The position numbers were made by a program, and so were the translations under genes. Positions 1,012 to 12,432 of a stretch of 12,432 bases of DNA are shown here, in pieces. Within the stretch, counting starts at the first letter, position 1, and each line of letters starts with the position of its first letter. Location of the stretch: the IMG/VR virus record IMGVR_UViG_2909246061_000008. One strand, given 5' to 3'. Below the pieces are notes generated by a model. That model was not told the origin of the DNA. It worked only from the letters and a program-made list of their open reading frames with translations, and did not search any database. The stretch comes from a virus (Duplodnaviria > Heunggongvirae > Uroviricota > Caudoviricetes).

Positions 1012-1027
1012 AGGTGGGTCATGAGGG

Positions 1028-2674
1028 TCAGGTTGTTGCAGGGTCGTCACATTTTGGCAGCCAGTCGCCGTAGCTTTCCTCTTTCAGCGTCAGGTTGGTC
1101 TGTATCCCCTGTTTGGTATGGCGCTTCTCGTAATTCAGTCCGTATTCCTTCAGCATCACCGGCAGCCCCAGCCCGAACATTTTCAGACTGAGTACATTCC
1201 GGTAGCCGTTTGCCTCCATGTAGGCCAGATAGGCGTGATAGAGGTATTTACGGTAATTACGCGGGATGATACTGGCGTTCCCCATATACATGCCGCTGGT
1301 CTGCGGCAGGGTTTCCAGATAGCCGATAAAATCAAACGTCGGGTCGGCATCCCGTTTGATGTTCAGCGCCTCGTCTGAGTTCTGCTGGGACTGAAGCAGT
1401 GACCGGGCGAGCATCGGGTCGCTGAACTTCTGCATCAGGTGACGCACGATGACCGCCAGCTCGCGGGTGATTTTGTCCTTAAGCTGCGGGTCGCGCTCCT
1501 GCGGGGCTATCTGTTCCGGGAAGTGAATAATCACCCGCCGGCGTGACACGCCGCCGCTGCGGTCGGTGAAGCGCATCGGGTTATTGTTCACGGCCAGAAT
1601 TACCGCCGGGATATGCGTGGAGTACGCATCCCGGTATTTCGGGTCCACGGACACCGCATCGCCGCCGGTGATGGCCTTGAGTCCGGCACCGTCGCCGCTC
1701 CATTTTTCCTGGTCCGGCAGGCGTATCAGTGAGAAGCCAGTTAACGCGGCACGTTCACGCGGGGATTCCAGCGTCTCGATGGTGGCCGACGTGGCGTTAT
1801 CCTCCCCGGCCAGCAGGGTGGCTATTTCGGCCATGATACTTTTGCCGCTGCCGCCGGGACCGGTCACCTCCAGAAAGAGCTGCCAGTCGTAGCGGTTTGC
1901 CAGCACCATAAACAGTGCGGCCAGAATCACGTCGCGTTTTTCCGCACGGCCACCGGCGGCACGGTCAAGCCAGCGCCAGAACGCGGGGGCGTGGGTTTCC
2001 AGCGTTTCCCCTTCCACCGGCGGGGTGAAATCCACATCGCACAGGGTGCGCATCCAGTGTGACGGACTGTGCGGGTGGAACGTGCCGTTCTGCGTGTCGA
2101 GCACGCCGTTACGAAAGCCAATCAGGCGGCGGGAGGGGGCTTCCTGCTGCGGAATAATCAGCTTCAGGGTGTCCACCACGGAGGCCACCTTCCCGGAGGA
2201 GAACGGCGCACGCAGCCGCTGAAACAGCCCGGCCACATCCCGGGCAAAGTCCTGTGGCGGCAGCACCTTCCAGACACCATTTTCATAGCGGGACAGAAGC
2301 TGGCCGTTGGCATCGACCGCGAGCGCCTCGCCGTAATGCTCATAGATACGCATGGCCTTTTCGCTGGTACTCATGGCGGAAAACTCCGCTTCGCTCATGG
2401 TGTCGAACGGGCTTTCAGCCGGTGGCCGGATGGCATCATAAATGGCCTTACGGGTGGCTTCCCCGCCGTACTGCGTGAAGGCATCATTCCAGTCACCGAA
2501 GACCGGCGGCAGGGCAACAACACCCTCACACGCATCTGCGGCTGCGGCGGCTTTTTTCTGGCCGTCACCGCTGAGGTCACGGTCTGCGGCAAGGACAATC
2601 TGACAGGCCGGATGCTTCTGCCGGGCAAGGCTGGCCAGAGAAAGGAGGTTCACGGAAGAAAGCGCCACCATCAC
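1028..2674 (-). CDS. P4 alpha-like primase/helicase, N-terminally truncated (TOPRIM remnant + SF3 helicase + C-terminal domain); possibly a pseudogene
   Basis: 548-aa ORF with a TOPRIM-like LAADRD motif near its start, Walker A GPGGSGKS, and an SF3-type motif C (ILAVNNNP). The reading frame stays open upstream to a stop at 2759-2761 (about 28 more codons) without reaching a primase N-terminal domain or a convincing start; the annotated start is GTG/ATG at 2674/2671. High G+C (~60%+). Adjacent to TGTTCACC iterons. Confidence 0.75.
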   Translation of the reverse strand: MMVALSSVNLLSLASLARQKHPACQIVLAADRDLSGDGQKKAAAAADACEGVVALPPVFGDWNDAFTQYGGEATRKAIYDAIRPPAESPFDTMSEAEFSAMSTSEKAMRIYEHYGEALAVDANGQLLSRYENGVWKVLPPQDFARDVAGLFQRLRAPFSSGKVASVVDTLKLIIPQQEAPSRRLIGFRNGVLDTQNGTFHPHSPSHWMRTLCDVDFTPPVEGETLETHAPAFWRWLDRAAGGRAEKRDVILAALFMVLANRYDWQLFLEVTGPGGSGKSIMAEIATLLAGEDNATSATIETLESPRERAALTGFSLIRLPDQEKWSGDGAGLKAITGGDAVSVDPKYRDAYSTHIPAVILAVNNNPMRFTDRSGGVSRRRVIIHFPEQIAPQERDPQLKDKITRELAVIVRHLMQKFSDPMLARSLLQSQQNSDEALNIKRDADPTFDFIGYLETLPQTSGMYMGNASIIPRNYRKYLYHAYLAYMEANGYRNVLSLKMFGLGLPVMLKEYGLNYEKRHTKQGIQTNLTLKEESYGDWLPKCDDPATT

Positions 2675-2895
2675 CGTTTCACCGGTCAGGTGATGTACGG
2701 TACCATAACTGTAGTGAATGTCTGTTATGAGCGAGGGGCGGAAGTTCGGAATGCATACTTACTTCGATGTGTGTTAAGCAATGGGGGCAGGTCGGCAATT
2801 TATTGTAAAAGCGATAACACTAACAGCATTAGTGAAGAGGCTAAAGATTTGTTTAGAACCCGCCCCCTTAAGAGGCGGTATTCTTGGCAAACATT

Positions 2896-5800
2896 TTATT
2901 TACTGTTTATCAATTGCAATAATGGGATCTCAGCTACATCACTAGGAATATAGGGGTCATCTTCTTTTAAATTAACCCCAATACAATCAACATCATTTAA
3001 CCCAATTTCCCAAGCCCACCTAACATCTAACGTACTCATTTCTATCCCTAAACTATCTCTTTGTGGATGCTCAGGAACAATATTTTTTAACATCGCATCA
3101 CATCCAAGATAGAATTTTCCACAGGCCTGATACGCAGCAAGAAATCTTTCTAAATTGACGTTACTATCAGGAGTCATCGTATTAATTCTACTGATCATTG
3201 TCATTCTTTTAGTTAATGGCGTTGTCATCATATTTTCAGATATCAGCACTCTATAATGATTTGGGTTTTTAACTGAAATACCCTTGACAATACAAACCCG
3301 TAATCTGGCTTTACTATCTACCAAGCCTACTGATGATATAAGATCTTTAAAAATATCCTCACCTATATTGGGGTGTTTAAATAATAGATATAACCCTGGA
3401 TAACACGATTTTAATTGAGCGAAGCCTACTCCTTGCCAGCGTGTTCTATCCCATAGACGAGGCTTGATTAGACTTTGTATTGAATAATCTTTATGCGTTA
3501 TATTTTCGGAATTAAGTTCCTCTTCAGGCATTATTCCTTTACCAGGTGTTGGAACATTTACATCCTCGATCTCCAACACTTTCGGAAATTCACTATCCCA
3601 GGGTTTATCTCTTAAAAGAGGGTAAGTTTTCTTTTCAGCACTGGTGGAATAAATTTTCTTAATTTGTTGATCAATATCATTTCCAAGAACATTTTCAATA
3701 GCTTTGATACAGGCACCGAAACTAATTGCTCTGTCAAATGCAGCATCTTCGAATATCATTCTTTCAATGTATTCTGTATTTTTTGTAAAAAATAACTCAG
3801 GGAGAAGATCAAATACTATTTTCTTGAATTCATTAGTAATTTTTTGTTGAGCATCGACTCTAAATGAACTTGTTTCAAAACCATTGCAATTTATAGTAAG
3901 GTTTAGTTTTCCATTATTGCTATTTATTTCATGTGATAAGGAGAAGTCATCTTCATCATCTGCTATTACTTCAATAATTAAAAATGCTTCTTTCAGATGG
4001 ATGTTATCAATCGTACAAGTTGCAAAAGCACTCTCTAAAAGCGCTAAGATACTAGTTGAAAACTCTATAAATGGTGACCGATTCGGAAAGTTAATTTCTA
4101 TAGTGCATCCAAAAATAAAAGATGTATATATTCCTCGTTTATCATAGTTATCTTTTATGCCTTTACTATTGAATCCAGCATCAAAGTCACGTATTTCTTG
4201 CAAGAAATCATTATGATCTTTATCGGCAGTAACTTCATACTCATGTTCAAAATTTTCAATATAACCTAAAGCATATTTAAGACATCCAGATGATACAAAA
4301 AGACCTAATCTATCGAGTTCATCGGGAATATTACTCTGTCGATTTATTCCATTTAGGTCAGTGTTCAAAATGAGTTGACTTATGTAAAAATCAACTTGCT
4401 GATTTTCTTTATCGCCGAACGAACTTTCACTGATATTTTGGTTAATTATTAAAAACAGTTCATACCATAAAAGAGCATGTGCTAATTTCCCTAGTTTTAT
4501 TTCTGCCAGGCATAAACTATAATAAATCTCAGCCTGCTTTAATGATATCTCATCATACTTCCAGTAGTTATCTGTAATCAAAGAAGCGGATAGAAGCAAG
4601 CATGAACGTGAACTCCATAGCAACCCAATGGATTCGTAAGCATAAGCAATAGCTTTTAATGCTAATATAAATTTATCTCGTGATTCCTCTTTATAGAGTG
4701 GTATAAATGATTTTCCTAAATACTTGATTGCCTGATAAGGGTGACCATTTTGAATCCTCTTTATACCTCTTCGTAGATTTAATAATGCCCCTTTAACTTC
4801 ACCACCTCTAACAGCAGATTGCTCAGTCATATAGTCTAATAAATTTTCATATGCATCTACCTCGAAAAAAATGTCATCCAGTTCGTTCAAAAGTTGGAAG
4901 TTCTTCTCAAAGGAATAGCCTATTAAATTCCCACTATTTTTAAAAATTTCATGTAACTCTTCAAATACAACCGAAGCATCTTCTACATCTGAAAACGTTG
5001 TCAATTTATAAATAGCTTTGTGAGTTCTCGCTGTGAGTGCATTACTGGGACGTGATTCATCGTCAGCTATCTCATCTAGTTTAGCGAGCATGTTACGTTC
5101 AATATTCTCAATATCGATTGTAGATGTTGCGTTGTTAAGTCTAATATAACTTTTATGAACGGTTACTAAATTTAAAACTTTCTCCCATTTTGAGGAATTA
5201 GTTGATGATGCAATACTTTCATATGCAAATTGAAGATTTTCTTCAAAGAGATTAAAATCTTCCATCCAAAAATGAGACTTCCAGGCATATTGATAATACG
5301 CATCTAGCAATTGTTGATTAGTCCCGAATTTCTTTGATATTTTTATAGCTCTTTCAAATAGACCTTGTGTTTCAATTAGTGGTTTCTCAAGTTCAGCGCT
5401 TAACTCTGCAATTTCTAAAAAAATATCCACCTGTTCATATGAAATTTCAGCAGGGTTTATTTTCTCTCTAATATACTCGGTTAACTCTTCATATTTTTTA
5501 TGCTTTTTATAATCATTTTCTCCAAAAATAACTTCTCTTTTATATTGCGTTGGAACTGACAATGAATCAATGGCCAATTGCTCAAAATTATTTTTGTAAA
5601 TTTGATCTAATAGCCAATTAATATCTAATATACGAACATCTATTCCAGTTTTTGTTTTTAGTGTATCCTCAACCTCTGAACGAATATTGGACTTTGCAGA
5701 CTGGTTCGTTACGCAAAATACTTTAGCATACCCACGTTCTGTTTCTTTTATCTTAAGTACATCTTCATGGCATTTTTTCTTCCAGTCTTTACGTGTACTT

Positions 5801-6147
5801 ACCGCAAAGGCCCAGCGTTCTCTATTTGATGCTTCATTAACGCCTTCGAACCAAAGAAGCTTATTCTGTTCTGAAACAGGGAATGTTTGTGTGTCAGTTT
5901 TACCATCCCCCCCTGCTACAGGGCCAGTTTGTTCAAGGAGATTAGGGCAAATTATTTTTTCACATATTTTTTTTGCAAAATCTTCGAATTGTAGTTCTTG
6001 ATTTCTTGTATTTAGCGTAGAGAGGAAGTGTTCCAGTACAACTCTGTCTAAAGTACCAGTCTCTCTGATTGTTGAATCAGAAAATTTTTCAGGGCGACGG
6101 CGCCTTAGAAATTCTTTAGATGAAAATTTGGTTTTCTGTACATTCAT
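2896..6147 (-). CDS. Large hypothetical protein (1083 aa) encoded in a low-G+C cargo block; function unknown, candidate stand-alone defence/abortive-infection protein
   Basis: Single uninterrupted 3252-nt ORF. G+C is about 30-35% against ~55-65% in the flanks. A GAGGAG Shine-Dalgarno lies ~10 nt upstream of the ATG at 6147-6145, which overlaps the stop of the truncated stf (ATGA). Composition is Lys/Glu/Asn/Ile/Phe-rich, with helical repeat-like stretches in the middle. No Walker A (GxxxxGK[ST]) was found. The N-terminus carries GPVAGGDGKTD (aa 75-85), weakly reminiscent of an Mrr-type nuclease motif. Confidence 0.8.
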   Translation of the reverse strand: MNVQKTKFSSKEFLRRRRPEKFSDSTIRETGTLDRVVLEHFLSTLNTRNQELQFEDFAKKICEKIICPNLLEQTGPVAGGDGKTDTQTFPVSEQNKLLWFEGVNEASNRERWAFAVSTRKDWKKKCHEDVLKIKETERGYAKVFCVTNQSAKSNIRSEVEDTLKTKTGIDVRILDINWLLDQIYKNNFEQLAIDSLSVPTQYKREVIFGENDYKKHKKYEELTEYIREKINPAEISYEQVDIFLEIAELSAELEKPLIETQGLFERAIKISKKFGTNQQLLDAYYQYAWKSHFWMEDFNLFEENLQFAYESIASSTNSSKWEKVLNLVTVHKSYIRLNNATSTIDIENIERNMLAKLDEIADDESRPSNALTARTHKAIYKLTTFSDVEDASVVFEELHEIFKNSGNLIGYSFEKNFQLLNELDDIFFEVDAYENLLDYMTEQSAVRGGEVKGALLNLRRGIKRIQNGHPYQAIKYLGKSFIPLYKEESRDKFILALKAIAYAYESIGLLWSSRSCLLLSASLITDNYWKYDEISLKQAEIYYSLCLAEIKLGKLAHALLWYELFLIINQNISESSFGDKENQQVDFYISQLILNTDLNGINRQSNIPDELDRLGLFVSSGCLKYALGYIENFEHEYEVTADKDHNDFLQEIRDFDAGFNSKGIKDNYDKRGIYTSFIFGCTIEINFPNRSPFIEFSTSILALLESAFATCTIDNIHLKEAFLIIEVIADDEDDFSLSHEINSNNGKLNLTINCNGFETSSFRVDAQQKITNEFKKIVFDLLPELFFTKNTEYIERMIFEDAAFDRAISFGACIKAIENVLGNDIDQQIKKIYSTSAEKKTYPLLRDKPWDSEFPKVLEIEDVNVPTPGKGIMPEEELNSENITHKDYSIQSLIKPRLWDRTRWQGVGFAQLKSCYPGLYLLFKHPNIGEDIFKDLISSVGLVDSKARLRVCIVKGISVKNPNHYRVLISENMMTTPLTKRMTMISRINTMTPDSNVNLERFLAAYQACGKFYLGCDAMLKNIVPEHPQRDSLGIEMSTLDVRWAWEIGLNDVDCIGVNLKEDDPYIPSDVAEIPLLQLINSK

Positions 6148-7571
6148 GATTTTGACGCTCCTCTTGCTATCCCCTTTTTCGTCGTACTTGCATCCTCAAG
6201 CGCCACGGCGGATGCAATATCCTCTGCCCGTTTTGCCGCTGTCTCGGCGCGCGTTGCCGCGGATTCCGCCGTACTTTTGCTCTGTGCTGCCGCCGTCGCA
6301 CTGCCAGCTGCCTCTGTCGCCTTCGTGGATGCTGTCGTGGCGCTGCCCTTCGCTGCGGACGCTTGTCTGGTCGCCTCATCTTTTGAAGCAGACGCCGATG
6401 ATGCCGATGACGCCGCCGAACTGGCGGACGATGCCGCTGCCGTTTTTGAGGATTCTGCGCTGGTTTCCGACGCTTTCGCGTTCGTCTCGGATGTCTTCGC
6501 TGCGGAAGCAGACCTCGCTGCTGCGCTGGCCTGTTCAGTGGCTTCGCCAGCCTTCGTTGTGGCTGTTGAAGCAGACGATGCGGCACTTTCTGCCGATTTT
6601 CCGGCGGCGGTGGCACTGGCTGAGGCCTGCCCGGCACTTGTTGACGCGGCACTGGCAGACGACGCAGCCGCTGTTTTTGAGCCTGCCGCAGCCGAGGCGC
6701 TCTGTCCCGCTGCCGTTTCAGAAGACCTGGCGTTTGTCTCAGACGTCTTTGCCGCCTTCGCGGAATTGCCTGCCGCCGTTGCCGAGGAAGCGGCACTACT
6801 GGCGCTTGATGATGCGTTCGTTTCTGATGATTTCGCTGCCTCTTTTGAGGCCGCCGCATCCCGGGCTGAGGTGGCTGCTTCTGACGCCTTCGTGGTCGCG
6901 GCGGATGCAGAAGTGGCTGCTGATTGTTGTGACGCTGCCGCATTCGTTTCTGACGTTTTCGCCGCACCGGCACTGGTAGCTGCCGCGCTTTTTGAGGACT
7001 CTGCAGCAGCAGCACTTTTCGATGCTTCACTGGCCTTTGTTGATGCCGTTCCTGCGCTGGAAGTCGCTGACTGAGCCGACGACGCGGCCTGTCCGGCTGA
7101 CGTGCTGGCTGCGCGTGCTGAGCCTGCAGCATCAGTCGCATGGGTTGCCGCCTCACGGGCTGATGTGCTGGCATCACTGGCTGACTTCTTCGCGGCTGCC
7201 GTGTTCTGTGCCACCACGGACGCGTTACGCGCCACCTCTTCCACCATCAGCTCAAAACGGCGCAGTGCCTCCGGACGGGCATCATCCTCCGTCATGGCAC
7301 CGAGAAAATCATTCAGCGTACCGGGTCGGGAATCTTCATACACGGTAATGGTCCCGGCATGTGACGGCGGGAATCCTTCCACCAACAGACTGACGCTGTA
7401 CTGACCGTACTCAACGTCCATACTGTAACGCCCGGCTTCATCCGGATTTTCTGAGGCCAGCGTATTCACCACCACCGTGGTGCTGTTACGTTTTGCTTTC
7501 AGCTGGATTGTGCAGTTCTGTACCGGTTTTCCTGTGCCGTCTTTCAGTACACCTGAAATCTTTACTGCCAT
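6144..7571 (-). CDS. stf: Lambdoid side tail fibre protein Stf, N-terminal fragment, C-terminally truncated with 7 novel terminal codons
   Basis: N-terminus MAVKISGVLKDGTGKPVQNCTIQLKA... matches my recollection of lambda Stf, followed by an Ala/Ser/Thr-rich low-complexity region. Similarity ends after ...EDASTTKKGI; the tail ARGASKS is encoded by the junction sequence. ATG at 7571-7569 is preceded by a GGGGTGA Shine-Dalgarno; the ORF track's longer form starts at GTG 7577. Confidence 0.8.
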   Translation of the reverse strand: MAVKISGVLKDGTGKPVQNCTIQLKAKRNSTTVVVNTLASENPDEAGRYSMDVEYGQYSVSLLVEGFPPSHAGTITVYEDSRPGTLNDFLGAMTEDDARPEALRRFELMVEEVARNASVVAQNTAAAKKSASDASTSAREAATHATDAAGSARAASTSAGQAASSAQSATSSAGTASTKASEASKSAAAAESSKSAAATSAGAAKTSETNAAASQQSAATSASAATTKASEAATSARDAAASKEAAKSSETNASSSASSAASSATAAGNSAKAAKTSETNARSSETAAGQSASAAAGSKTAAASSASAASTSAGQASASATAAGKSAESAASSASTATTKAGEATEQASAAARSASAAKTSETNAKASETSAESSKTAAASSASSAASSASSASASKDEATRQASAAKGSATTASTKATEAAGSATAAAQSKSTAESAATRAETAAKRAEDIASAVALEDASTTKKGIARGASKS

Positions 7572-7582
7572 ATTCACCCCAC

Positions 7583-7609
7583 AAAAAAGCCCGCCTGAAC
7601 CGGCGGGCT
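7583..7609 (-). terminator. Rho-independent terminator between lom and stf
   Basis: 8-bp GC-rich stem (AGCCCGCC 7588-7595 with GGCGGGCT 7602-7609) around a 6-nt loop. On the minus strand it is followed by a T6 run (plus-strand A-run 7583-7588). Confidence 0.55.
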
Positions 7610-7635
7610 GTCATAACACTGTGTTACCTGGCTAA

Positions 7636-8235
7636 TCAGAATTTATAACCGACACCCATGATGAAACCGTCAGTGCGCCAGTCGCCACTGCCGGAGCCTT
7701 CATAAGCAATATCAATGGCCACGGATTCGGTCGGGTTAAACTGCACGCCAGCTCCCCACGCCAGAGACGTGTTGCTGTGGCGACCGTCATCACTTCCGGT
7801 CAGCACGTCGTGCGTTTTCCCCTTGTTGTCAGTTACGCGGAGATAATCCCCGGAGAAAGTCGACACACGGCTGTAAGCCACACCCGCCATCGCATACGCG
7901 CTGAACCATTCATTCACGCGCACAGACGGCCCCGCCATCACGCTGAACCAGCGGTTACGAACGGAATCTTCATGCCAGCGGGTATCGCTGTAACGGGTAA
8001 GCTGGCGATTCTTGTCTCCTGCATAGCTGAATGACGTCACTATCCCCAGTGTGTCCGTAAACTCATAACGGTATTTCACGTTAATCCCGTTCAGATCATC
8101 ACTGCCGGGAACGTTGGTCCGGGCATGAAGATACCCCGCGCTCAGCGTGGACTGATGTTCAGATGCCCATGCAGGCGCACCGGATACGGCCAGACAAATG
8201 GCTGCGGACAAAATGGCGGCATAAAGTTTACGCAT
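7636..8235 (-). CDS. lom: Lom-like outer membrane protein (Ail/Lom family)
   Basis: 199-aa ORF with a signal peptide ([24 protein letters not shown]) and the C-terminus ...[25 protein letters not shown] typical of Ail/Lom beta-barrels. A GAGAGG Shine-Dalgarno lies 6 nt upstream. Its position between the I fragment and stf mirrors lambda J-lom-stf order. Confidence 0.9.
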
Positions 8236-8257
8236 AATTACCTCTCGCTTTTCTGCA

Positions 8258-8284
8258 ATAAAAAAGGCACCATTTCTGGTGCCC
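8258..8284 (-). terminator. Rho-independent terminator upstream of lom and downstream of the I fragment
   Basis: Stem GGCACC (8266-8271) pairs with GGTGCC (8278-8283) around a 6-nt loop. On the minus strand it is followed by TTTTTTATT (plus-strand A-run 8258-8265). Confidence 0.5.
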
Positions 8285-8304
8285 TTATATGGGTTATAAC
8301 AATT

Positions 8305-8697
8305 TCAACGAATACTGATGCCGGAAGCGACTTTTTTGGTCACAATCACCGTACAGTCGGTGATATTACCTGCCCACTGATTGCCTTTATGGAAAACCTT
8401 AAACTCCAGAGTGACGCTTCCCCTGCCACTCGGCATATCAATAATCGCACTGTAGCTACCGGGAAGACGGGCTGATAATTCATTTTCGCCTGCATCACGC
8501 CCGGCAATGCGCACCTGATACCAGCCCTCATTCACTTTCTGGCGAAACGACGGAAGCTGCGTGGCCAGCGCCCGGATGGCTTCGGCCCCCGTTTTCACAC
8601 GAAGGTCGATGCGGTGGCCAAATCGTTGTAAATCCCCGTAAAGGCAGATGCGTGCCATGCCCGGTGACGCCAGAGGGAGTGTGTGCGTCGCTGCCAT
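8305..8697 (-). CDS. Lambdoid tail assembly protein I, N-terminal ~80 aa joined to an unrelated ~50-aa C-terminus; J is absent
   Basis: The first ~80 residues (MAATHTLPLASPGMARICLYGDLQRFG...WYQVRIAGRD) match my recollection of lambda gpI, then the sequence diverges (AGENELSARLPGSY...VASGISIR). The ORF is 130 aa against ~223 expected. No J-sized ORF lies between it and lom. Confidence 0.65.
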   Translation of the reverse strand: MAATHTLPLASPGMARICLYGDLQRFGHRIDLRVKTGAEAIRALATQLPSFRQKVNEGWYQVRIAGRDAGENELSARLPGSYSAIIDMPSGRGSVTLEFKVFHKGNQWAGNITDCTVIVTKKVASGISIR

Positions 8698-9347
8698 TTG
8701 TCGGTATACCTCTCTCGTTTGCTCAGTTGTTCAGGAATATGGTGCAACAGCTCGCCGTCGCCGCAGTAAATGGCGGCATGATTCGGCACCGATGAACCAA
8801 AACAGCACAGCAGCACATCGCCCGGTTGTGCTGATGACAACGGCACCTGATACAGCCCTGTGGCCTCCAGATTATCCAGATAGAGATTCTGACCGTGACG
8901 CCACCAGTCATCCCCGCGATGAAAATCCGGCATCTCAATTCCCGCCAGATGGTAAGCATCCCGGAACAGCGTGTAACAGTCCGTCACCCCGTGCTCAAAG
9001 CGCCGCCCGGTGAGATGCGGCACACAGCGGAATTTATGAATCGCCCCCCGGCAGACCAGCCACCACGGCAAATCACTCTGCACCTGCAGCCGCCGGTCGG
9101 TCTCACTCAGCCAGGGCAGACCACCGGGGTGGCTGTGGACCAGCGCCACAATCTCACCCTGCATCTCTGCCCGCAGCCAGTCCTCCGGCGACATCCGGAA
9201 ATACTCCTCCGGCTCACCGGAGATATTCACGCAGGGAAAATATCTTTCCCCCTCCGGTGTTCTCACCACGAAGCCGCACGACTCCGCTGGCGCACATCGC
9301 CGGGCGTGCGCCAGAATCGCTGATTCTGTCTCTGTCATGGGATTCAC
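8595..9347 (-). CDS. Lambdoid tail assembly protein K (JAB/MPN + NlpC/P60 domains)
   Basis: HSHPGG (JAB-like) motif and a Cys/His pair (..DCYTLF.., ..PNHAAIY..) typical of NlpC/P60. Near-lambda-like by recollection. GTG at 9347 overlaps the L stop (GTGA); an alternative ATG lies at 9338. The 3' end overlaps the I start by ~100 nt, as in lambda. Confidence 0.85.
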   Translation of the reverse strand: MNPMTETESAILAHARRCAPAESCGFVVRTPEGERYFPCVNISGEPEEYFRMSPEDWLRAEMQGEIVALVHSHPGGLPWLSETDRRLQVQSDLPWWLVCRGAIHKFRCVPHLTGRRFEHGVTDCYTLFRDAYHLAGIEMPDFHRGDDWWRHGQNLYLDNLEATGLYQVPLSSAQPGDVLLCCFGSSVPNHAAIYCGDGELLHHIPEQLSKRERYTDKWQRRTHSLWRHRAWHASAFTGIYNDLATASTFV

Positions 9348-9718
9348 TGCGAAAGTTTGTTAATGGAAAGGAAGCCGCCAAAGTTGCCGACGTTATTGCG
9401 AAACTTACAGCCGCTCAGGCATTTGCTGCATTTATCCTTCGTGATATCGGACGTCGGCTGATCATATTCATCCGCGACCGCCGGACCGTGATAACCGCAC
9501 TCATCACCGCGATAGGTCCAGGTGCAGGTGTTGGCCAGCATGATACGTCCCGGAAAAACGGCACCGTCCGTTTCCGTCGGCGTGGACAGTACAAAAGAGG
9601 CACTCACCGCGCTCAGTTCGCTGCACTGCTCGATGCGCCAGCGGCTGATCACCTCCTGCTCCGGATCGGCGTCACTGTTTCCGTTGACGAAGTTCACCGC
9701 ATCCAGATACCGTCCTTT
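9344..9718 (-). pseudogene. Lambdoid minor tail protein L, 5'-truncated (C-terminal ~125 codons only)
   Basis: Translation (K)GRYLDAVNFVNGNSDADPEQEVISRWRIEQ...FGGFLSINKLSQ matches the C-terminal part of lambda L as I recall it. An in-frame stop at 9719-9721 cuts off the N-terminal half, and the similarity ends exactly where the inverted repeat begins. Confidence 0.7.
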
Positions 9719-9720
9719 TT

Positions 9721-9809
9721 ACAAAACAGAGAAGAGCATCACCGGACGACGGGCTCATAACCCAATCCATCCGGGCGGCAGTCACCGCAGGTGTTCTTCT
9801 CTGTTTTGT
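9721..9809. repeat. Perfect 15-bp inverted repeat (ACAAAACAGAGAAGA / TCTTCTCTGTTTTGT) flanking a 59-bp spacer
   Basis: Arms at 9721-9735 and 9795-9809, read directly. It abuts the L truncation point and lies ~50 bp upstream of the yfdP-like start. Confidence 0.8.
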
Positions 9810-9857
9810 GGAGAAACTAACCGACCTTGCAGGGTCGATATGATGAGGAGCAGCAAA

Positions 9858-10220
9858 ATGGCTAGCGAACGCAGTACTGATGTGCAGGCATTTATCGGGG
9901 AGCTGGACGGCGGCGTATTTGAAACCAAAATCGGCGCAGTTCTCAGTGAAGTCGCTTCCGGTGTGATGAACACGAAAACCAAAGGTAAGGTCTCGCTCAA
10001 CCTGGAAATCGAACCGTTTGATGAGAACCGAGTGAAAATCAAACACAAACTCTCATATGTTCGCCCGACTAACCGCGGGAAAATTTCCGAAGAAGACACC
10101 ACCGAAACGCCGATGTATGTCAATCGCGGTGGTCGCCTGACTATTCTGCAGGAAGACCAGGGACAGTTACTGACTCTTGCCGGTGAACCTGACGGAAAAC
10201 TCCGCGCAGCAGGTCGTTAA
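9858..10220 (+). CDS. yfdP: YfdP-like prophage protein (120 aa), function unknown
   Basis: ATG at 9858 is preceded by GAGGAG at a suitable spacing. Length and gene order (followed by yfdQ/R/S/T-like genes) match the E. coli CPS-53 block as I recall it. The ORF track's longer form (from 9522) runs through the inverted repeat and is unlikely to be real. Confidence 0.6.
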   Translation: MASERSTDVQAFIGELDGGVFETKIGAVLSEVASGVMNTKTKGKVSLNLEIEPFDENRVKIKHKLSYVRPTNRGKISEEDTTETPMYVNRGGRLTILQEDQGQLLTLAGEPDGKLRAAGR

Positions 10221-10285
10221 TATCGTTTTTAATTAACTGATTATTTATCTCATCACTGAATATCTTTATATAGTGAGGACTTATT

Positions 10286-11110
10286 ATGTCTCAGAACTTA
10301 GACGCAACCGCAATTAATCAAATCCATGCCCTTATTTCTGCTCAGGGTGTTAATGAAATTATCAGTAAGATTGGTGCCGATGCTGTGGCATTGCCTGAGA
10401 ATTTCCGCATTCATGATCTGGAAAAATTTAATTTAAATCGCTTCCGTTTCCGTGGTGCGCTTTCCACTGCCAGCATCGATGACTTTACCCGTTATTCTAA
10501 AGATCTTGCAGATGAAGGCACCCGCTGCTTTATCGATGCTGATAATATGCGTGCCGTCAGTGTGCTTAACCTGGGTACTATTGATGAACCAGGTCACGCA
10601 GATAACACCGCCACACTCAAACTGAAAAAGACAGCACCGTTCTCTGCTCTGTTGTCTGTTAACGGCGAGCGTAACTCCCAGAAGTCACTAGCAGAATGGA
10701 TTGAAGACTGGGCCGACTATCTTGTGGGCTTTGATGCTAATGGTGACGCTATTCAGGCAACAAAAGCGGCTGCGGCTGTCCGTAAAATCACGATTGAAGC
10801 AAACCAGACCGCTGATTTTGAAGATAATGACTTCAGCGGCAAACGCTCCCTGATGGAGTCTGTCGAAGCGAAGACCAAAGACATTATGCCAGTGGCATTT
10901 GAATTTAAATGCGTTCCGTTTGAAGGTCTGAAAGAACGTCCGTTTAAATTACGCCTCAGTATTATCACTGGCGATCGTCCTGTACTGGTTCTGCGCATTA
11001 TTCAGCTGGAGGCGGTGCAGGAAGAAATGGCTAACGAATTTCGTGATCTGCTTGTTGAGAAATTCAAGGACAGCAAAGTAGAAACCTTTATTGGTACTTT
11101 CACCGCCTGA
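10286..11110 (+). CDS. yfdQ: YfdQ-like protein (274 aa; DUF2303 family by recollection)
   Basis: Clean ORF with a GAGGA Shine-Dalgarno 6 nt upstream. The 274-aa length matches YfdQ, and its position in the yfdP-T-like block is consistent. Confidence 0.7.
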
Positions 11111-11122
11111 TTTCATTACTGC

Positions 11123-11144
11123 AAATGCCCCTGCGGGGGCATTT
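11123..11144 (+). terminator. Hairpin (possible intrinsic terminator or attenuator) between yfdQ and yfdR
   Basis: 9-bp stem AAATGCCCC (11123-11131) pairs with GGGGCATTT (11136-11144) around a 4-nt loop; the U-tract is short and embedded in the stem. Confidence 0.4.
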
Positions 11145-11237
11145 ATGGAAACGTAATTTACTCAATAATCGCCGGATGGTGAGGGATTCTTTTTGCCAGA
11201 ATTCAGCGCGGTGCAGCGCATATACGTGGAGAACAAA

Positions 11238-11774
11238 ATGTCATTTATTAAAACTTTTTCCGGGAAGCATTTTTATTATGACAGGATAAATAAAGACGAC
11301 ATCGATATTAACGATATCGCGGTTTCCCTTTCAAATATCTGTCGCTTTGCCGGTCATCTTTCGCACTTCTACAGCGTCGCCCAACATGCGGTTCTTTGCA
11401 GCCAGCTGGTGCCGCAGGAATTTGCTTTTGAAGCGTTAATGCATGATGCAACAGAAGCGTATTGCCAGGACATTCCCGCACCACTGAAACGCCTTCTTCC
11501 TGACTATAAACAAATGGAAGAAAAAATAGACGCCGTAATCCGTGAGAAATACGGGTTACCCCCAGTTATGAGTACGCCCGTGAAATATGCCGATCTCATC
11601 ATGCTGGCAACCGAACGCCGCGATCTCGGGCTTGATGATGGCTCTTTCTGGCCTGTACTGGAAGGTATCCCGGCAACAGAGATGTTCAACGTGATTCCAC
11701 TGGCACCGGGCCATGCCTACGGGATGTTTATGGAACGCTTTAACGAGTTATCGGAGTTACGCAAATGCGCATGA
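11238..11774 (+). CDS. yfdR: HD-domain phosphohydrolase, YfdR-like 5'-deoxynucleotidase (178 aa)
   Basis: HD-domain signature (H...H spacing then LMHDATEAY). ATG at 11238 is preceded by GGAG 7 nt upstream; the ORF track's longer form from 11193 lacks a good start context. Length matches YfdR. Confidence 0.8.
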   Translation: MSFIKTFSGKHFYYDRINKDDIDINDIAVSLSNICRFAGHLSHFYSVAQHAVLCSQLVPQEFAFEALMHDATEAYCQDIPAPLKRLLPDYKQMEEKIDAVIREKYGLPPVMSTPVKYADLIMLATERRDLGLDDGSFWPVLEGIPATEMFNVIPLAPGHAYGMFMERFNELSELRKCA

Positions 11775-12127
11775 ATATTTTCGAAATGGAAGGGTTTCTT
11801 CGTGGGAGATGTGTACCGCGAGATCTGAAAGTAAATGAAACAGATGCTGAATACCTGGTGCGTAAATTCGATGCGCTTGAAGCTAAATGTGCAGCACAGG
11901 AAAACAAAGTAATACCAGTGTCAACTGAACTGCCACCAGCAAATGAAAGTGTTTTGTTATTCGATGCTAACGGAGAAGGCTGGCTAATTGGCTGGCGTTC
12001 TCTCTGGTACACCTGGGGACAAAAAGAAACCGGAGAATGGCAGTGGACATTTCAGGTCGGGGACCTTGAAAACGTCAATATCACTCACTGGGCAGTAATG
12101 CCAAAAGCACCGGAGGCTGGAGCATAA
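11765..12127 (+). CDS. yfdS: YfdS-like protein (120 aa), function unknown
   Basis: ORF overlaps the yfdR 3' end by 10 nt, with GGAG upstream. Length and order match YfdS. Confidence 0.7.
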   Translation: MRMNIFEMEGFLRGRCVPRDLKVNETDAEYLVRKFDALEAKCAAQENKVIPVSTELPPANESVLLFDANGEGWLIGWRSLWYTWGQKETGEWQWTFQVGDLENVNITHWAVMPKAPEAGA

Positions 12128-12432
12128 TGACCACTTTTACCGACAAAGAACTGATTAAAGAAATTAAAGAGCGTATCAGCAGCCTTGACGTGCGAGACGA
12201 TATTGAGCGCCGTGCTTATGAAATCGCACTCCTATCTCTGGAAGTAGAACCAGATGAACGCGAAGCTTATGAATTATTCATGGAAAAGCGTTTCGGTGAC
12301 TTAGTAGATCGTCGGAGAGCAAAAAACGGCGATAACGAATACATGGCATGGGATATGACTCTCGGTTGGATCGTCTGGCAGCAACGAGCTGGTATCCATT
12401 TTTCAACAATGTCACAGCAAGAGGTGAAATAA
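12127..12432 (+). CDS. yfdT: YfdT-like protein (101 aa), function unknown
   Basis: Its start overlaps the yfdS stop by one nucleotide (TAATG), indicating translational coupling. A complete 101-aa ORF ends at the last base of the window. Confidence 0.7.
   Translation: MTTFTDKELIKEIKERISSLDVRDDIERRAYEIALLSLEVEPDEREAYELFMEKRFGDLVDRRRAKNGDNEYMAWDMTLGWIVWQQRAGIHFSTMSQQEVK

Follow-up and report, generated by a model that had tools for sequence, protein, structure and literature searches.

A low-G+C cargo gene between decayed satellite and prophage genes of Escherichia coli encodes a 1083-residue candidate defence protein with a predicted Mrr-like fold and TPR-like solenoid

The window analysed here, the whole 12,432-nucleotide (nt) stretch of the IMG/VR virus record IMGVR_UViG_2909246061_000008, contains on its minus strand a single open reading frame (ORF) of 3252 nt at 2896-6147, which starts with ATG and codes for 1083 amino acids (aa) according to the ORF list and its translation. 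The gene is intact, its product is identical to RefSeq WP_039268304.1, and it lies between pseudogenes of a satellite and of a lambdoid prophage. The ORF has a G+C content of 0.334 and the interval 2701-6171 one of 0.341; the flanks have 0.605 (1001-2700) and 0.577 (6172-9700). The longest open frame of the block comprised 1091 codons versus a maximum of 150 in 500 shuffles of the block, thus the ORF did not arise by chance. The protein is rich in Leu, Glu, Ile, Lys, Asn and Phe. A preceding sequence-only reading had described a low-G+C minus-strand ORF with a Lys/Glu/Asn/Ile/Phe-rich product as foreign single-gene cargo in a prophage/satellite region; coordinates, G+C content and composition were found as stated, and the foreign origin is borne out. 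The exact protein sequence was present on 222 contigs and its 90 %-identity cluster had 1,567 members, all labelled hypothetical. The locus comprises the following features:

2896-6147, minus strand: cargo gene, stop codon included (ORF list, translation and RefSeq annotation of identical copies)
2701-2895, minus strand: native 3' flank of the block, 195 nt past the stop codon, shared with genomes of differing neighbour DNA
6148-6171, minus strand: retained native upstream DNA, 24 nt; the block ends at 6171 in every comparison
about 1016-2689, minus strand: pseudogene of a P4-family primase without its N-terminus, a satellite remnant (RefSeq annotation; ORF 1028-2674)
about 6141-7559, minus strand: lambdoid stf pseudogene (stf'), N-terminal part only (RefSeq pseudogene annotation from L001; ORF 6144-7577)

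A megablast comparison with 5,426 complete E. coli genomes detected the block in 23. Six of these share the flanks of the window; in the other 17 the match is limited to window positions 2701-6171, with 99.6-99.9 % identity, which places the block boundaries at 2700/2701 and 6171/6172. The low-G+C block is real, but the limits proposed before, 2760-6167, had to be moved to 2701-6171. At the right junction the two matching segments overlap by 5 nt (6167-6171), fitting a microhomology-mediated deletion. A Shine-Dalgarno sequence, AGGAG, is located at 6158-6162, 10 nt ahead of the ATG. No tRNA attachment sites were found near the block in the window or in four loci.

In sister genomes the ORF is preceded, at a distance of 62 bp, by an integrase remnant that the window has lost; the earlier statement that no integrase or transposase is visible describes the window correctly, but not these relatives. 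In strain 6409, an intact lambdoid prophage (J, lom, full stf, tfa) is followed by the integrase remnant, the ORF and a complete satellite-like element (int, DUF6387, helix-turn-helix (HTH) gene, antA, ash, TOPRIM/DUF927 primase). GZ04-0086 has the order paoD, LysR remnant, ORF, integrase remnant, tfa, stf, lom and J, without the satellite, and no primase pseudogene lies there between chromosomal flank and block. EC21Z-063 represents an intermediate: the integrase remnant is retained, tfa and the distal part of stf are gone. Compared with EC21Z-063, the window has a further deletion of about 746 bp that left 24 nt of native upstream DNA. The stf' frame, fused to the block by deletion, overruns the start of the cargo ORF and ends there. 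With the intact prophages of 6409 and GZ04-0086, the prophage remnants of the window share 95-96 % DNA identity. Since these two strains keep the block beside intact stf and tfa, and EC21Z-063 is intermediate, the layout of the window arose from successive deletions beside a pre-existing int-ORF module; this module, the prophage and the satellite have all decayed in this way. The proposal that the block had replaced the distal tail-fibre genes and the 5' end of the primase gene was abandoned on the evidence of these sister genomes. For E. coli genomics, an orphan low-G+C gene between two pseudogenes is thereby explained by a deletion series across sister genomes. The same block occupies a second E. 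coli chromosomal site: in NWU strains the module of integrase remnant, ORF, int and DUF6387 is located beside mscS with a frameshifted ORF, split in NWU_3 (L031 8196-11446) into ORFs of 893 and 115 aa. The copies of Rahnella (896 aa) and Photobacterium iliopiscarium (663 aa) look shortened. Such frameshifted or shortened copies are a sign of rapid turnover and frequent inactivation.

An AlphaFold2 model of the protein, built on an alignment of 40 sequences, had a mean predicted local distance difference test score (pLDDT) of 83.8 and a predicted template modelling score (pTM) of 0.75 over its full length. Three parts were distinguished, the first with a conserved loop:

5521-6147, minus strand: N-terminal or head domain, aa 1-209, predicted Mrr-like PD-(D/E)xK restriction-endonuclease fold
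5860-5928, minus strand: invariant loop of the head, aa 74-96 (TGPVAGGDGKTDTQTFPVSEQ...), with D81, K83 and D85 (conservation counts)
4183-5520, minus strand: middle region, aa 210-655, predicted all-helical tetratricopeptide repeat (TPR)-like solenoid, presumed binding or sensor scaffold
2899-4182, minus strand: C-terminal region, aa 656-1083, two predicted alpha/beta sub-regions (about 660-860 and 885-1083), family-specific (secondary structure of the model)

The model shows an architecture of three parts and, for the head and the middle region, the class of fold; fold searches with the whole model were dominated by TPR matches. The modelled chain combines an N-terminal effector-type fold, that of a nuclease, with a repeat-type, sensor-like region, the TPR-like solenoid. 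Sequence searches did not lead to an assignable family, as had been noticed before: Pfam, NCBIfam, PHROGs and PADLOC returned no significant match (sub-threshold noise: FhaA_N, one TPR_2 and YrzI), and a PDB sequence search, with the protein alone and with the 40-sequence profile, gave no match at E ≤ 10. On the 40 aligned members, Pfam at E ≤ 10 yielded weak TPR families alone, plus one stray SMEK_N, which was disregarded. PADLOC-DB 2.0.0 assigned no family to the E. coli protein, to a member of the Pseudomonas clade or to an Agrobacterium relative. The C-terminal region had no Pfam or PDB sequence match; its conserved residues are H885, W899, W904, D944, Y965 and R987.

Several candidate features were considered and rejected. 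The Walker A pattern [AG]x4GK[ST], earlier reported as missing, occurs once (AIKYLGKS, aa 473-480); the model places it with confidence in a helix, amid repeats that are helical throughout, and it is therefore not a P-loop. The conclusion drawn at that time, that the protein is no NTPase of the STAND (signal transduction ATPases with numerous domains) type, was sound: model and fold search revealed no NTPase fold or domain, and residues 210-655 are purely helical. The HEPN-type Rx4H noticed near aa 470 is present as RIQNGH at aa 464-469 and has a conserved R464, but the conservation of H469 is below 60 %, and the motif was dismissed. Transmembrane segments are absent (maximal Kyte-Doolittle mean over 19 residues, 1.4). 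A phage structural or tail-fibre protein, already doubted in the sequence-only reading, was rejected as well: PHROGs gave no match, and homologues reside in chromosomal islands and on plasmids without tail genes.

Conservation is highest in the head domain: all 40 family members compared carry T74-G75-P76-V77-A78-G79-G80-D81-G82-K83 and D85 unchanged, and K96 is conserved in 24 of them. E55 is invariant along with the loop GGD81-G-K83-x-D85, resembling FE...gDGGiD of Mrr. Among 136 representatives (50 %-identity clusters with a median identity of 30 % to the query), E55, D81, K83, D85, S117, K125 and D129 were conserved to at least 90 %. The alpha/beta core fold of restriction endonucleases was found in the modelled head, and at the level of the model this fold assignment is solid. 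By eye, the series FE...GGDGK(T/V)D...AFAVST...FCVTNQxAK...RILD may be placed parallel to FE...gDGGiD...vQaK...lvTTsxFtxxA...LiD of Mrr_cat. The head also occurs with a different body, since a 986-aa protein on an Agrobacterium pusense plasmid (L024:5923-8883) shares this domain alone, with 27 % identity over aa 36-235. This relative carries a more canonical GGDGGKD loop.

The family is large. A word-indexed search retrieved more than 760 relatives, the best 120 of which were nearly all of about 1085 aa, and an exhaustive profile search of 1.84 billion representatives gave 2,471 matches at E ≤ 1e-3, 1,748 at E ≤ 1e-10 and 929 at E ≤ 1e-30, the last figure counting clusters at 50 % identity. 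The top 150 profile matches all had E values below 1e-193; about 136 had a length of 1,000-1,150 aa, the others were shorter, apparently incomplete entries. Proteobacteria, Bacillota and Cyanobacteria are represented. The 90 %-identity cluster is present in five enterobacterial genera (E. coli, Salmonella, Klebsiella oxytoca, Enterobacter hormaechei and Cronobacter), DNA identities of 93-98 % reach Kluyvera and Photorhabdus, and full-length relatives of 27-30 % identity are located on plasmids of Cohnella (Bacillota) and Nostoc (Cyanobacteria) as well as of Agrobacterium, Pseudosulfitobacter, Sphingobium, Burkholderia and Cupriavidus. Among 50,697 phage records, one matched the family, the unverified MT836254.1, which showed no phage hallmark domains on the ORFs scanned; IMG/VR holds six viral contigs with a family gene.

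The check suggested earlier, whether homologues recur in mobile and defence contexts, gave a positive answer: in unrelated genomes they are repeatedly neighbours of integrases or known defence genes, or are carried by plasmids and prophages. In Providencia, Kluyvera and Photorhabdus the gene is directly downstream of an integrase; in Providencia this is a prophage integrase, and genes for pP_pnuc, HNH, Mrr_cat and PvuRts1I are nearby. The Aeromonas locus has a Gabija-like AAA_15/21 and UvrD pair, Mrr_cat, AbiH and a Cap4-nuclease/AAA_22 protein within 9 kb. Vibrio parahaemolyticus harbours the gene in a thyA-splitting island with SIR2_2+DUF87 and AbiH, Citrobacter near TerB_N/TerB_C, a BrxD-like ATPase, a DEAD helicase and a kinase, and a Nostoc plasmid near AbiEii and NACHT genes. 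On the Cohnella and Nostoc plasmids the gene is found beside ParA/ParB genes. Two IMG/VR contigs carry it between the lambdoid replication genes O-P and a kinase gene. Further loci include one with PAAR-DUF4225 and AIPR, a plasmid-like Pantoea contig and Tn7-like cargo in Agrobacterium. Microbulbifer and Pectobacterium possess int-DUF6387-AlpA-(DUF927 primase) islands that resemble the satellite of strain 6409. Among the 148 nearest neighbours at 38 non-redundant loci, Phage_integrase was the commonest Pfam family (8 proteins), and the PADLOC models matched included PD-T4-6, AbiH, LmuB and PDC-S15. These counts were set against no background and represent qualitative guilt by association. As a side observation, DUF6387 recurs beside integrase and AlpA-type HTH genes in gene-bearing islands of E. 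coli, Pectobacterium and Microbulbifer (L002, L004, L021, L031, L034); these islands mark a widespread type of satellite-like or integrative element with a DUF927/TOPRIM primase.

Partner genes differ between clades. Within the enterobacterial clade, to which the window belongs, no neighbour gene is conserved. A small Ser/Thr kinase gene directly adjoins the gene in Citrobacter, Serratia (95-aa remnant), Microbulbifer and two related viral contigs, and also adjoins the gene of the 986-aa Agrobacterium relative. The kinase genes, coding for 338-386 aa apart from the Serratia remnant, are located at:

L005:13376-14401, Ser/Thr kinase
L021:8839-9855, Ser/Thr kinase
L024:4698-5858, Ser/Thr kinase
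L038:11326-12378, Ser/Thr kinase
L010:13377-13664, 95-aa remnant in Serratia

The adjacent kinases match the PADLOC models PD-T4-6 and mad6, that of Microbulbifer with an E value of 1e-46 over the full model. Because PD-T4-6 is a stand-alone defence kinase, they were regarded as co-located defence genes, although they may also be functionally coupled; the kinase was rejected as obligatory partner, being missing from most loci. In the Pseudomonas/Xanthomonas/Azomonas clade (about 33 % identity), a protein of about 239 aa is encoded ahead of the gene in 15 of 16 loci with otherwise unrelated neighbours, on the same strand and 120-200 bp upstream (L050-L072, e.g., L053:1573-2292, plus strand); it is not present in the window and had no Pfam or PADLOC match. 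In this clade the two genes look like a specific two-gene operon.

On balance, we slightly favour a role of the 1083-aa protein as a stand-alone, NTPase-independent sensor-nuclease immune protein against phages or mobile elements. A function in defence or against mobile genetic elements in general is probable; the specific mechanism of nuclease release is put forward tentatively and stands at somewhat less than even confidence. The gene would travel as the first cargo gene beside a tyrosine integrase. In its product, the TPR solenoid and the C-terminal alpha/beta region would restrain the N-terminal Mrr-like nuclease-fold domain and recognise an infection cue, most plausibly a phage protein. 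Binding of the cue, probably with self-association, would free the head domain to cut DNA, and this cutting would destroy the invader or kill the cell (abortive infection). We infer the defence function from the location beside integrases, the known anti-phage gene neighbours and the large family, and with it a working nuclease head, a sensed cue and oligomerisation on activation. An independent machine-learning screen, DefensePredictor, adds to this support (Science 2026, PMC13092281, supplementary file 3). It lists the 1083-aa E. coli protein WP_021514558.1 under the cluster representative WP_039268304.1, the same cluster as the window protein, as 'Putative/Predicted novel defense gene' with a mean log-odds of 8.44, the strict cut-off being 4; for another E. 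coli cluster from this family (1079 aa) the score was 6.08 (PMC13092281). The best defence homologue by HHblits of WP_021514558.1 was a Cas-associated TPR protein, at 16 % query coverage and 78.9 % probability (PMC13092281). The entry for WP_039268304.1 consists of the machine-learning score alone; no domain analysis or experiment was found there.

A number of observations weigh against a sensor-nuclease function, and they concern the screen, the expression of the window copy and the protein itself. About 45 % of the cloned DefensePredictor predictions were protective (PMC13092281), and the table of cloned proteins contains neither the accession nor the peptide GPVAGGDGK. No phenotype data were found in the literature, where the cluster appears in the DefensePredictor prediction table alone; an accession search of main texts gave no mention, and a domain-centric screen (Nucleic Acids Research 2026) mentions neither TPR nor Mrr. 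The additional conserved partner in some clades means that the term single-protein system may not hold for the whole family.

Expression of the window copy is a second difficulty. The native promoter region is deleted, and expression of the ORF in the window strain is therefore uncertain. A strong terminator-like hairpin of 8 pairs (7 G-C) with a T-run is located on the minus strand at 7588-7609, directly after lom and 11 nt before the start of stf'; such a site would reduce transcription running on into stf' and the cargo ORF. With this terminator-like site between lom and stf' and the native upstream DNA cut to 24 nt, the window copy may be silent. It could be a passenger that is intact because the deletions are recent and that has no function in this strain, a situation which we regard as unlikely while giving it real weight: a search of the minus strand upstream of the ORF revealed no promoter-like site, the neighbouring prophage and satellite genes are pseudogenes, and the NWU copy is frameshifted. 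On the other hand, the ORF is 100 % identical in the six genomes with the window arrangement, the ribosome-binding site is kept, and the stf' frame ends on the ORF start, so that read-through transcription and coupling are possible. Moreover, silence would concern expression in the window and not the identity of the protein.

The third difficulty is the chemistry of the head. The loop 74-96 was modelled with a pLDDT below 50 in both models. By eye, the conserved Ala115-Val-Ser117 seems to stand at the strand-3 position of the canonical Mrr (E/Q)xK, and the invariant K83 and K125 might substitute for the QxK lysine. Pfam Mrr_cat (PF04471) had no match at E ≤ 10 in any of the 40 members, and when an N-terminal profile of 109 sequences was compared by hhalign with an Mrr_cat alignment of 121 sequences, itself narrow (Neff about 2.2), the probability was 0.1 %; with single Mrr_cat sequences included, the probabilities for the head were 0.1-1.3 %, not significant. 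Without an Mrr_cat match and with insignificant hhalign results, the nuclease activity of the head has to be seen as putative. The likeness of GPVAGGDGKTD (aa 75-85) to Mrr, proposed in the sequence-only reading, is borne out as a near-invariant peptide, but not as a canonical active site or a match to Mrr_cat. The 430-residue C-terminal region, in turn, could hold the real effector. It is quite improbable, in our estimation, that the head is catalytically dead and serves in DNA or ligand binding or in regulation, with effector or signalling functions in the C-terminal region or in partner genes (kinase, ~239-aa protein). The Ala115-x-Ser117 at the by-eye QxK position, the missing sequence-profile link to Mrr_cat, the conserved H885, D944, Y965 and R987, the conserved partner in the Pseudomonas-type clade and the kinase adjacent in at least four lineages speak for it. 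Dead domains usually drift, whereas no other part of the protein is as conserved as this head, whose acidic and basic residues include invariant ones. A relocated lysine is familiar from known PD-(D/E)xK enzymes. In addition, no partner accompanies the gene in the enterobacterial clade, the window among them, and PD-T4-6, the defence family matched by the kinases, is a stand-alone one.

Even less credence was given to a Type IV-like modification-dependent restriction enzyme, in which the Mrr-like head would cut and a beta-rich C-terminal region would read modified bases, without protein sensing or abortive infection. Among the 40 members, Pfam recognised no DNA reader of the SRA, EVE, PUA or any other family, a TPR solenoid of 450 residues is typical of protein or peptide binding, the domain order is reversed compared with MspJI/AspBHI, and the canonical QxK seems to be missing. 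Least probable is a gene that serves its mobile element as an addiction or stabilisation toxin, or as a weapon against plasmids, satellites and prophages with no role against lytic phages: the gene is always on or beside integrative elements, plasmids or prophages and has ParA/ParB neighbours on the Cohnella and Nostoc plasmids, but there is no conserved antitoxin-like small partner, bona fide anti-phage genes are co-located, the DefensePredictor score is high, and the line between service to an element and 'defence' is blurred.

A more far-reaching interpretation, which we consider speculative and rather unlikely, would see in the family a new widespread class of NTPase-independent single-chain immune receptors. 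In these, the TPR solenoid and a novel fold would gate a re-wired Mrr-like domain with Ala-x-Ser replacing QxK and the invariant TGPxGGGDxKxD loop supplying the chemistry. This chemistry need not be DNA cleavage and may be directed, e.g., to nucleotides or a modified substrate. Helpers in such a class would differ by clade: none in enterobacteria, the ~239-aa protein in pseudomonads and a PD-T4-6-type kinase elsewhere. If the protein defends against phages, the immune repertoire would gain a large and phylogenetically broad family, with no fewer than 929 clusters at 50 % identity. The protein would also join Upx as the second sensor-nuclease that does without the STAND ATPase switch of Avs proteins, and one would have to ask by what route the binding of a target can release the nuclease when no nucleotide is hydrolysed. 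The active site, apparently non-canonical, and the 430-residue tail pose concrete structural questions, and the clade-specific partners offer a natural experiment in the elaboration of such systems.

Other parts of the window bear further traces of decay and recombination. Just downstream of the primase pseudogene, 120-nt direct repeats at 674-793 and 854-973 share 81 % identity at a spacing of 180 nt in a stretch with a G+C content of 0.35-0.38, and a 12-nt tandem pair is located at 609-632; the repeats at 674-973 may represent an ori/crr-like iteron region of the decayed satellite. At 8464/8465, the tail-tip gene J and a part of the adjoining tail-assembly gene were lost in one deletion of about 3.8 kb (compared with the intact prophage of strain 6409, L002 20837 to 24643), the annotated leftovers being fragments of 162 and 195 nt. 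On the opposite strand, CPS-53-type early genes (yfdP, yfdQ, yfdR, phage protein, yfdT) occupy 9700-12432 and abut a shortened gene for minor tail protein L, which forms a second mosaic junction. The ORF at 1-411 begins with MPAPVVLILAAGRGERF (1-72), resembling the N-terminus of a nucleotidyl-transferase (MobA/MocA-type), and continues in frame into a LysR substrate-binding pseudogene (73-411); the fused frame is probably artificial, produced by reading across the paoD-LysR' junction.

Among known systems, Upx is a single-protein, ATPase-less defence with PD-(D/E)xK nuclease folds, one of them atypical and auto-inhibited by the middle domain; it is reportedly released by, or senses, a phage protein (Gao et al. 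2020; PMC13099982; bioRxiv 10.64898/2026.04.30.721860). It is the closest working analogy to the window protein, but not a homologue, with no PADLOC family at E ≤ 1. Avs4 (AVAST type 4, PDB 8dgf) possesses a STAND NTPase module, which the window protein lacks, as it lacks any PADLOC Avs match; the window protein has instead an extra alpha/beta C-terminal region of 430 residues, and, by eye, its QxK is not at the canonical place. The likeness to TPR receptors of the Rap/RNPP and LGN/Pins types is at the fold level alone (8-13 % identity) and generic to TPR solenoids, and no phosphatase or HTH module is present. In MspJI and AspBHI, Type IV modification-dependent enzymes of about 400-450 aa, an SRA-like reader comes first and a catalytic domain of the D...QxK type forms the C-terminus. 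In contrast, the window protein has its nuclease fold at the N-terminus, no detected reader domain, apparently no QxK and 870 further residues. The logic of a single-chain sensor-nuclease carried as cargo is familiar and the protein had been flagged by the machine-learning screen, but it belongs to no described defence family, and its architecture of an Mrr-like fold, a TPR region and a C-terminal tail, without NTPase and with an apparently re-wired motif, is distinct.

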